This document shows, piece after piece, positions 12,276-57,957 of a stretch of DNA of 64,000 nucleotides; position 1 is the first letter of the stretch; each line of letters starts with the position of its first letter. The notes below the pieces were generated by a model that saw only the letters and a program-made list of their open reading frames with translations, was not told the DNA's origin and made no database searches. The translations under genes were made by a program, and so were the position numbers. This stretch comes from Octopus vulgaris (lineage: Eukaryota): positions 9,858,001 to 9,922,000 of the forward strand of contig OX597828.1 in NCBI GenBank assembly GCA_951406725.2. Direction: 5' to 3'.

Positions 12276-12336
12276 TTACCGTATTGGTCCCAATTTCGGG
12301 GTTAATTCATAAGAATTTTCCCCTCTTCAGCGATAA
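12276..12336 (-). ncRNA. Type-I hammerhead ribozyme (family H1), intact core
   Basis: rc: ttatcg-CTGAAGA-gggg aaaattc ttat gaattaa cccc-GAAA-ttgg ga ccaa-TA-cggtaa. Stems I, II and III all pair; AUA cleavage triplet. Lies in a ~390-bp unique segment (12150-12540) bounded by (TA)n. Confidence 0.85.
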
Positions 12337-24857: not shown

Positions 24858-25526
<669 letters not shown>

Positions 25527-25698: not shown

Positions 25699-25755
<57 letters not shown>

Positions 25756-25757
25756 TA

Positions 25758-26560
25758 AGTAACAATAAAGGGTGAAATTAATTAATTTGGAATAATTATT
25801 AATTACACCAAGTAGATTTCGGCATGTAAAAGCCTCATTCGAGGAAAATTTAAGTAATACTAAGCAATTAAGGGTTTAACAACGAATTGCCTCACCACAC
25901 ACCGAATTTAGAAATAGCAGTCAAAGGGTTATAGCTATTTTTTCTACTAAAAGGGAGATCTCAGTAAAAATACAGCACTTGAATGGCAAACACAGACAGG
26001 TAAGAGAGAATGAAATGACGGCAATCTATCATACAATTTTAAGTCACCTACGGACGTACGTTTCGAAATCAAGTTTTAGGAAAGCATAAGAATTAGATAA
26101 TTCTACCTTACCCAAACTTCTTTTCTCATCAGCGTAGGATACTACAATTATGAATAATTGTATATTAAATTTTGAGATACTAGAAGGCATCGTCTCAACT
26201 CAGTGTCAGAGCGAGCCAAAGCATTACCAGTACCACGAAATTCAAAGTGTGAATGAAAGTTTGTGTCACCAGCCCCTTTCCACCCGCGTGTAGCCAAGAC
26301 AAGATGCTGTGGTCATTTACTGGGATAAAATATGGTTATCAGTAACAATAAAGGGTGAAATTAATTAATTTGGAATAATTATTAATTACACCAAGTATTT
26401 CATTCTCTCTTACCTGTCTGTGTTTGCCATTCAAGTGCTGTATTTTTACTGAGATCTCCCTTTTAGTAGAAAGAATAGCTATAACACTTTGACTGCTATT
26501 TCTAAATTCGGTGTGTGGTGAGGCAATTCGTTGCTAAACCCTTAATTGCTTAGTATTACT
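25758..26560 (-). mobile_element. Hammerhead element family H3: 583-bp monomer with 57-bp direct repeats and 164-bp inverted arm
   Basis: 25758-25814 = 26341-26397 (direct); 25853-26016 is the near-identical rc of 26397-26560; (TA)n on both flanks. Confidence 0.9.
26047..26138 (-). ncRNA. Minimal type-I hammerhead ribozyme (family H3), intact core
   Basis: rc: cctacg-CTGATGA-[long stem II gaaa..aagttt..gaatta tc taattc..aaactt..tttc]-GAAAC-gtac-GTC-cgtagg. Perfect 6-bp stem I and palindromic stem III. Confidence 0.92.
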
Positions 26561-26699
26561 ATATATAAATATATATATATATATATTGTTTCTTTTTTTC
26601 TGAACGGAAAACCCGCTTCTTTCTGTTTGGTGCCAGTAAAATCTCGATAAGAGTGATTCATTGTAGTAGAGATCATGCATTGTAGAAAGGATAATCGCT

Positions 26700-56425: not shown

Positions 56426-56977
56426 TCTATCCCTGATGGTAGGCGTGGTTGTTTAGTAAGATGGTTTCTTTCGAACAACATGGTTCCATGTTTAGTCCTA
56501 CGTTACTCCTTGTGTGAGTGGCTTTTTAAACCAGACGATGTTTTGAAAAGACACCCACATACATTGCATATCTGTTTTGGACCAGCATGAGTTGCAGTTA
56601 AGTTCTGATTTGTGTGGATCTTAAAATATTATTTACGGCTTCCATTAGATTTGCAGACCTTATGACATACATAGCATTGATAAGTATTCGCAGACAGATA
56701 AGCTGAGTAGTTGGTGGAGGTTCGTTTTTCATGGGTCCGCAGAAGTGAAAATCATGTTCTATCACAAATTGTACCCACAAAAAGATGGCTGGAATTCATT
56801 TTGTCATTGATCGTAGTATTTTTCTTTAAATTTCTTTTGAGATTCGCATGAATAATCGTAGCTCCTTTTGGGTTTCTTTGTGTGTGTGTTTTACGCTATG
56901 AATTTACATTTAATGTGTGTCTTTATAAACATAATTATAATTATAAATATGTTTTAGTGCGTGCTAATGTTTGTTTC

Positions 56978-57957
56978 AGTAATCTATATGCTGTGAGTCA
57001 ATGGGCAGACAGAAACAAAATGCAACTGAATGAGGGAAAATTTGAGCTGATGCATTTTGGAAGAAATTCCTCACTAAAACAACCATACTCTCTTCCTTCA
57101 GGGGAACCGCTCATAGCCTCTAACAATATCAGAGACCTGGGTGTAATTGTTGATGACGATCTCAGTTGGAGTGCACACATCAGCAAGAAGGTCGATATAG
57201 CTCGTAGGATGAGTTCCTGGATCTTAAGAACTTTCCGGTCCAGAGAACAAGGTGTCATCATACCACCTTTTTCCTCCTTTGTACGGCCACACCTCGAATA
57301 CTGCTGCCCACTGTGGTCTCCTCACACAAGACAAAACATCTCCAGAATTGAGTCACCCCAGAGGGCACTCACTAAACGAATTGAAGGCATGGCTGCTCTC
57401 GATTATTGGGATCGCCTTAAAGCCTTGAAACTTTACTCCCTCCAGCGTCGCCGTGAGCGGTACATCATTTGTACGATGTGGAAAATATACCGCCAACTTT
57501 GCCCAAACGACCTAAACATTAGCTTCAAGGATCATCCAAGACTTGGACCACGGGCTATACGTCCCCTGCCCAATTCAAGATCAGAACATACATGTACACT
57601 GCAACATAATTTCTTTTCCTCAACAGGCCCTGCCCTATTTAACATTGTCCCGAGGGAGATCAAAGAGGAAAAGGATCCCATTAACTTTAAACAGAGTCTG
57701 GATAGATTCCTTCAAAGAATACCAGATAAGCCACCCATAATTGGATACAACTCACCCAACAATAACTCACTACTTGAACAAAACTGGATACAACTCACCC
57801 AACAAGAACTCACTACTTGAACAAAGCTTGACTTAAACAAAACTTGACTTAAACAGGATTCGAATAATCCTATCAGGTGGTGCTATTAAGTTAGACATGG
57901 CCTGGACCAATCTTTGGTCGAAACATATCTAAGTTTATCTAAGTTTATCTAAGTTTA
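56978..57957 (+). mobile_element. 5'-truncated CR1-type LINE (RT C-terminal region, 3' UTR and tandem tail)
   Basis: Open frame to 57820 with WADRNKMQLNEGKFELMHFG, IRDLGVIVDDDLSW, FVRPHLEYCCPLWSP and YWDRLKALKLYSLQRRRER; 3' hairpin gaccaa/ttggtc and tail (ATCTAAGTTT)3. Confidence 0.93.

Follow-up and report, generated by a model that had tools for sequence, protein, structure and literature searches.

Insertions of a non-coding, hammerhead-bearing element of Octopus vulgaris pair two different end sites

How does an element that encodes no protein come to lie in a (TA)n tract as a partial tandem with an inverted arm? This question is raised by an insertion within 64,000 nucleotides of Octopus vulgaris DNA (assembly GCA_951406725.2, contig OX597828.1, forward strand, positions 9,858,001 to 9,922,000), the whole stretch being called the window in the following.

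The window insertion and its family

The repeats spaced by 583 bp, the inverted arm and the minimal hammerhead motif that had been read from the sequence were all found where they had been predicted (Table 1). The two direct repeats are identical over exactly 57 bp and cannot be extended by sequence comparison. This identity stands, but its interpretation as terminal redundancy of the element does not, as the repeat is the overhang of a 5'-truncated copy of 1.1 monomers that stops there. Moreover, identity over 57 bp has a calculated probability of 0.34–0.56 at a divergence of 1.0–1.9%. With monomer positions numbered from the predicted cleavage site, the long arm comprises monomer positions 239–583 followed by 1–295. 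The inverted arm matches 25853–26016 at 161 of 164 positions and overlaps the second 57-bp repeat by 1 bp. An interruption of the (TA)n tract, TATATATAAATATA, is present twice, flanking the copy on either side, and the true length of the target-site duplication is 9–14 bp, being ambiguous with the element ends.

Table 1. Coordinates of the features of the insertion within the window
Feature	Position	Strand	Description
Whole two-armed insertion	25758–26560	.	lies within a (TA)n tract
Long arm	25758–26397	-	640 nt, 1.1 monomers; 3' end at site A (monomer 295), 5' end at monomer 239
Monomer unit	25815–26397	-	single 583-nt unit; none of the three sense translations is stop-free
57-bp repeat, copy 1	25758–25814	-	monomer 239–295; contains a predicted hairpin (25810–25772)
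57-bp repeat, copy 2	26341–26397	-	5'-truncated start of the previous monomer
Inverted arm	26397–26560	+	monomer 37–200; 3' end at site B; head-to-head junction overlap of 1 bp
One-sided tail	25758–25852	-	95 nt in this copy; on the long arm, missing from the inverted arm
Structured module	25758–25953	-	about 200 nt, common to families R2 and R3; covers sites B and A; candidate reverse-transcriptase recognition signal
Hammerhead motif	26047–26138	-	minimal type I; stem I 26138–26133/26052–26047, core 26132–26126, stem II 26125–26065
Palindrome	26054–26061	-	ACGTACGT; predicted intermolecular stem III of a double hammerhead
Left target-site duplication	25744–25757	+	TATATATAAATATA
Right target-site duplication	26560–26573	+	TATATATAAATATA

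All parts of the Penelope-type footprint that had been proposed for this insertion are present, i.e., the partial tandem, the head-to-head inverted arm, the (TA)n target and the target duplication. In the family, the partial tandem is likewise joined head to head to a 5'-truncated inverted copy and the tail is found at a single end, its length being about 100 nt instead of 30–40 bp. The flanks are (TA)n, with the duplication visible where the tract is interrupted, as in the window and in L104. The unit lacks any ORF, and so does not correspond to an autonomous Penelope-like element with a reverse transcriptase and GIY-YIG ORF between pLTRs. From the footprint we infer Penelope-type mobilisation of the element.

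The original prediction had named a single-copy sequence or an assembly artefact as the results that would speak against it. The element is multi-copy, the 583-nt unit having 2,464 candidate sites on many contigs of the 2.8-Gb genome, and the 40 that were scored show 91–100% identity. Its architecture recurs at many loci and public contigs of the runs labelled organisms A, C and D contain the family, which argues against an artefact; for the window insertion itself, no bridging contig was found among the public contigs. Monomers of the family have 583–588 nt and are arranged head to tail, with up to about 10 of them per array. There is no coding capacity, with stops in the three sense frames and no ORF of at least 100 aa over the element in six frames. 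Since each of the tandem units carries a type I hammerhead motif (motif scan; core alleles in 59 loci), the element is, as judged by its sequence, a non-LTR retrozyme. The predicted circle is strongly self-paired (z = -4.3, 40 shuffles). Fragments of Penelope-like elements near two family loci were considered as part of the element and rejected as separate insertions.

The window copy had moreover been regarded as a recent insertion and as the best candidate for an active element, and neither view was borne out. Its arms differ at 3 of 164 positions compared with a family mean of 1.0%, so that it is not specially young, and it holds one ribozyme only. The three differences are private alleles, each found in at most one other locus. 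In the family, 210 of 20,660 bases differ between arms and 506 of 48,417 between tandem monomers within insertions (1.0% each, overlapping comparisons being counted repeatedly), and the median divergence between loci is 3.7%. The age of the window copy is ordinary for its family. With a single hammerhead, the release of a unit-length RNA by double cleavage is impossible. For an active retrozyme copy, the accessible text of bioRxiv 10.64898/2026.07.22.740005 asks for at least two consecutive complete hammerheads; other family loci have them and the window copy has one, which weakens its status as an active copy, not its membership of the family. Tandem arrays elsewhere, for example the array of about 10 monomers in L107, are candidate sources.

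The hammerhead motif

On the minus strand (26138–26047), the motif consists in this order of CCTACG, CTGATGA, a 61-nt stem II, GAAA, C-GTAC-G, TC and CGTAGG, and cleavage is predicted by the motif scan between 26053 and 26052. Rfam gave no hits in the window at the gathering score and two chance hits at E ≤ 10, leaving the hammerhead unrecognised, so that the ribozyme call stands on the motif scan and on folding. The fold of the hammerhead has a z value of -2.75 against 200 shuffles. As a monomer, its best fold has -27.6 kcal/mol with the core buried and the active shape has -21.0 kcal/mol. Two copies are predicted to cofold at -63.4 kcal/mol, compared with 2 x -27.6 kcal/mol, forming an 8-bp intermolecular stem III with open cores. 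The dimer dependence through the loop III palindrome that had been suggested is thereby supported as a prediction.

Within the family, the core is not better conserved than the rest of the element, shared polymorphic sites making up 2 of 31 core positions versus 22 of 292 others. The variant U4C was found in 26 loci, and three upper pairs of stem II are disrupted in 13–15 of 59 loci. One stem II pair covaries (A-U in 53 loci, G-C in 6). Of six pattern matches for 5' ends at the cleavage site, four are true ends and the others come from a single locus in which both arms carry a deletion. The control counts are three at +9 (uninspected) and zero at -8, and 5' ends show no clear enrichment at the cleavage site. 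Furthermore, 8 of 94 5' ends are grouped at monomer 232–250 (p = 0.013 for an interval picked afterwards), a grouping to which no weight is given. Contigs of run X1, whose RNA nature is guessed, also cover part of the flank.

Further hammerhead motifs were observed beside this one. A minimal motif with a 26-nt stem II lies at 12336–12276 of the window (minus strand), and a near-identical motif in L110 indicates that it belongs to a further repeat family. A second hammerhead-bearing insertion at 24893–25321 has inverted arms of 141–143 nt with 88% identity and a motif at 25110–25173 (plus strand), to which a motif in L122 is similar; it has no match to the module of about 200 nt. As motifs with a stem II of 39–54 nt occur elsewhere in the genome (L038:39-123; L122), the long stem II of the window hammerhead is not unique here.

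End pairing and its explanation

For the analysis of insertion ends, 78 fetched stretches were pooled, resulting in 59 distinct insertions after removal of duplicates. The 3' ends fall into two groups about 100 nt apart, at monomer 196–205 (B, modal 196) and at monomer 289–306 (A, modal 299). The end classes were set to 270–310 for A and 185–208 for B, with limits fixed after inspection of the data, and aligned pieces shorter than 25 nt were excluded, so that a B arm of 23 nt in L030 escaped the count. Two arms are present in 35 of the 59 insertions, with the end pairs A+B in 27, A+other in five, B+other in two and other+other in one. Neither A+A nor B+B was found, compared with 13.3 like pairs predicted by independence (P = 5e-8). 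As 31 of the 59 insertions stem from a query favouring site A, the count was redone on the 28 insertions from a mid-monomer query, which favours neither end. These contain 15 two-armed insertions and again no like pair (P = 9e-4, or 1.6e-3 without the window copy).

At 44 polymorphic sites, the two arms of an insertion carry the same allele in 757 of 773 cells, compared with an agreement of 62% across loci, showing that both derive from one template. In 14 loci, both arms have alleles in common that were found in at most one other locus. L236 carries the same deletion, which removes stem III, on both arms and yet ends at A and B. The 16 discordant cells indicate that some templates were mixed. 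A junction overlap of 1–12 bp was seen in 22 of the 35 two-armed insertions.

Taken together, it is probable that these are two-armed insertions of a non-coding retrozyme made by a Penelope-like enzyme acting in trans, one RNA module being primed twice, at A and at B. Arrays would be transcribed to multimers, in which hammerheads might pair through the loop III palindrome, and a linear or circular RNA of 583 nt could be formed. A borrowed Penelope-like endonuclease/reverse transcriptase would bind one module of about 200 nt in the retrozyme RNA, and both strands of the (TA)n tract would be nicked about 9–14 bp apart. A cDNA would be primed from each nick, starting at site A in one case and at site B in the other. 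Both runs would proceed upstream on a common template, with the first being displaced by the second, before the two truncated cDNAs are joined head to head via short microhomology. The pairing of A with B might be due to an enzyme dimer with one active site per start point; alternatively, copying from B might unfold the B domain, so that the hairpin before A is all that remains. Insertion can probably proceed without self-cleavage.

A single priming event was considered as well, in which the first cDNA would fold back or prime itself to give the inverted arm, and endonuclease resolution at a fixed site would produce the tail. This is unlikely, although it accounts for the sharing of alleles between the arms and fits the 27 of 33 collinear arm pairs that are nested, including that of the window copy (two rearranged cases were skipped). 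Moreover, both 5' ends lie at about the same position in L023, L096 and L108, and self-priming is proposed in the accessible text of PMC3846280, as is endonuclease resolution of the tail in that of PMC8557442. Against this, neither arm is nested in the other in the remaining six pairs, one of them marginal, and non-nested arms cannot come from a simple fold-back, which argues for two runs; furthermore, the periodic sequence makes nesting easy. The longer arm can be either one, the A arm being longer in 17 of the 27 A+B insertions, and copies with one arm only have their end at either A or B (B in 10 and A in three of the mid-monomer-query set). In addition, the tail maps to two start sites of reverse transcription in vitro in the accessible text of PMC11167929.

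Priming of each strand by its own RNA molecule, or by its own monomer within a multimer, with the palindrome perhaps linking the two, is very improbable. It would agree with the favoured dimer fold in the cofold prediction and with differences at subfamily sites between the arms or monomers of L011, L062 and L108; however, independent modules offer no reason against A+A and B+B, and A+B pairs are formed both by family R3, in which no hammerhead was seen, and by L236 with its deleted hammerhead. Finally, a satellite or MITE-like repeat that was spread at the DNA level through recombination or slippage during replication and carries a hammerhead by chance can practically be dismissed: there are tandem arrays, and selection acting on the ribozyme core is not demonstrable within the family, but the fixed 3' and scattered 5' ends, the dispersal over many chromosomes, the unequal head-to-head arms, the target duplication and the (TA)n targeting point to target-primed reverse transcription.

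A shared module, its possible provider and known systems

Two further non-coding families, R2 and R3, match the element only over monomer 101–300, at about 70–80% identity. The monomer of R2 is about as long as that of the element, and its hammerhead-like motif has a stem II of 33 nt and a changed core. In most copies (L125-L154) this core is TCGATGA or TTGATGA, not CTGATGA, making ribozyme activity of R2 doubtful. R2 was by construction found with a looser hammerhead pattern, and the loop III it has in common with the element therefore does not count as independent evidence. R3 consists mostly of the bare module, often palindromic, and no hammerhead was seen in the seven loci read; it might be described as a SINE- or MITE-like minimal passenger. 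It was also observed as tandem units of about 200 nt parted by (TA)n and as palindromic head-to-head units (L192:1301-1859; L193). The ends of both families fall at the same two sites A and B. R2 comprises four A+B and two A+other insertions. For R3, 23 A+B calls, one A+other and one artefactual A+A were obtained in a set that was selected for A and contains duplicate fetches and one older copy of family R1. The A+A call, in L195, was rejected as two adjacent insertions and is A+B when read by eye.

In an alignment of 27 sequences, 96% of the cells in the predicted helices of the module are paired, a value reached in 0 of 500 shuffles and above all slid controls. The changes in the pairs are mostly one-sided and the structure was taken from the same alignment, so that the pairing constitutes support for the module rather than proof. 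It can be put forward tentatively that this portable module of about 200 nt, independent of the hammerhead, might be a complete parasite signal for a Penelope-type enzyme, two reverse-transcriptase active sites being loaded on one RNA at two fixed points 100 nt apart, one per target strand. Tail and inverted arm would then be marks of a priming that is always paired, with animal retrozymes being passengers of the module that bear a hammerhead.

Possible providers of the enzyme are not rare. Autonomous elements with reverse transcriptase and GIY-YIG domains are abundant in the genome, many with intact frames of 781 aa and with (TA)n insertion sites. In two autonomous families, one two-armed copy each has a tail on one side only, with a length of about 40 and 30 nt, respectively, and not of about 100 nt as in the element, which speaks against the explanation given above. 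The partner search comprised a GIY-YIG search, an inspection of the flanks of 16 + 20 selected hits, and the use of blastn and of nhmmer --max together with a profile of the module. In 97 overlapping stretches around Penelope-like genes, with 150 of 6,136 GIY-YIG candidates scored, it revealed neither an autonomous element with the module nor pLTR homology of the element to an autonomous Penelope-like element. The module matches that were obtained were rejected as separate non-autonomous insertions, and a Penelope-like ORF beside R2 in L146, which lies on the other side of a (TA)n tract, was rejected as an insertion of its own. When the stems were kept in a hammerhead pattern and stem II was shortened, 0 matches were obtained.

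Several Penelope-like sequences were recorded on the way. A young autonomous family (L124:289-5510; also L109, L112, L114) has an upstream frame of 479 aa without Pfam match above the cut-off, followed by a reverse transcriptase and GIY-YIG frame of 781 aa; a motif scan detected no canonical hammerhead core in its pLTR. The most abundant Penelope-like family (L156-L185) is very young, with 25,057 first-look candidates, 99% identity and frames of up to about 1,200 aa, and has a single end in the copies read, which likewise speaks against that explanation. In most of these copies, a minimal hammerhead lies about 111 nt before the single 3' end. Within the window, 62824–62352 (minus strand) is a decayed Penelope-like linker/GIY-YIG fragment with 63% identity to the 781-aa family over 95 aa, and 56852–57820 (plus strand) contains a 322-aa frame that presumably resembles the C-terminal region of a LINE reverse transcriptase.

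Publications already cover retrozymes, the link to Penelope-like elements that has been proposed for them, and the one-sided tail, and the window copy itself is ordinary. In the open-access literature, no paper was found that counts end pairing, reports a tail of about 100 nt or describes an end module shared by retrozymes. As far as given in the accessible texts of PMC7229834 and bioRxiv 10.64898/2026.07.22.740005, metazoan non-LTR retrozymes resemble the element in their tandem monomers, which are non-coding, low in G+C and carry a single type I hammerhead, in a strongly self-paired predicted circle and in their co-existence with Penelope-like elements, and differ from it with regard to its 61-nt stem II. 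Dimer-dependent motifs of amphibians (PMC7229834) likewise have a palindromic loop III and form a double hammerhead, which is predicted here. With 583–588 nt, the monomer is longer than the 170–400 nt of invertebrate retrozymes and within the range of 51–972 in bioRxiv 10.64898/2026.07.22.740005, according to the accessible text. The Xenopus retrozyme has pLTR homology to an autonomous element, unlike the element in the stretches examined. The enzyme that mobilises animal retrozymes is a proposal in PMC7229834, LINEs or Penelope-like elements being named, and pLTR homology is added as evidence in bioRxiv 10.64898/2026.07.22.740005. The word "inverted" is absent from the main text of the former, and insertion ends are not analysed in the accessible text of the latter. 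Insertion footprints offer independent evidence that Penelope-type machinery moves animal retrozymes.

Insertions of Penelope-like elements have an inverted 5'-truncated copy and a tail of 30–40 bp at one end in the accessible texts of PMC8557442 and PMC3846280. The element shares with them the partial tandem, the head-to-head inverted arm, the tail at one end, the microsatellite target and a short target duplication near 8–10 bp. It differs in lacking an ORF, in a tail of about 100 nt, three times the published length, in ends that were counted per insertion, and in an end module common to three otherwise unrelated non-autonomous families. For the PAc protein of the green anole Poseidon element, the accessible text of PMC11167929 describes that it cuts AT-rich DNA, extends both strands and uses two internal RNA start sites in vitro, with a dimer being predicted and hammerhead cleavage unneeded in vitro. 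There too, two internal start sites define the tail, the target is AT-rich and both strands are extended, whereas PAc is autonomous and its start sites are closely spaced. In that text, the start site shows no bulk difference between strands, and pairing per molecule is not reported.

The family turns the qualitative finding of a tail at one end only into a rule per insertion with a test for the same template, and it points to a short RNA module on which paired priming could be examined in vitro with a known partner protein. In the twin priming of L1, both target strands prime on one RNA and the inversion is joined by microhomology, the second primer being placed at internal positions that vary, with hardly any overlap between the arms. 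In the octopus element, by contrast, both start sites are fixed and the arms overlap widely.
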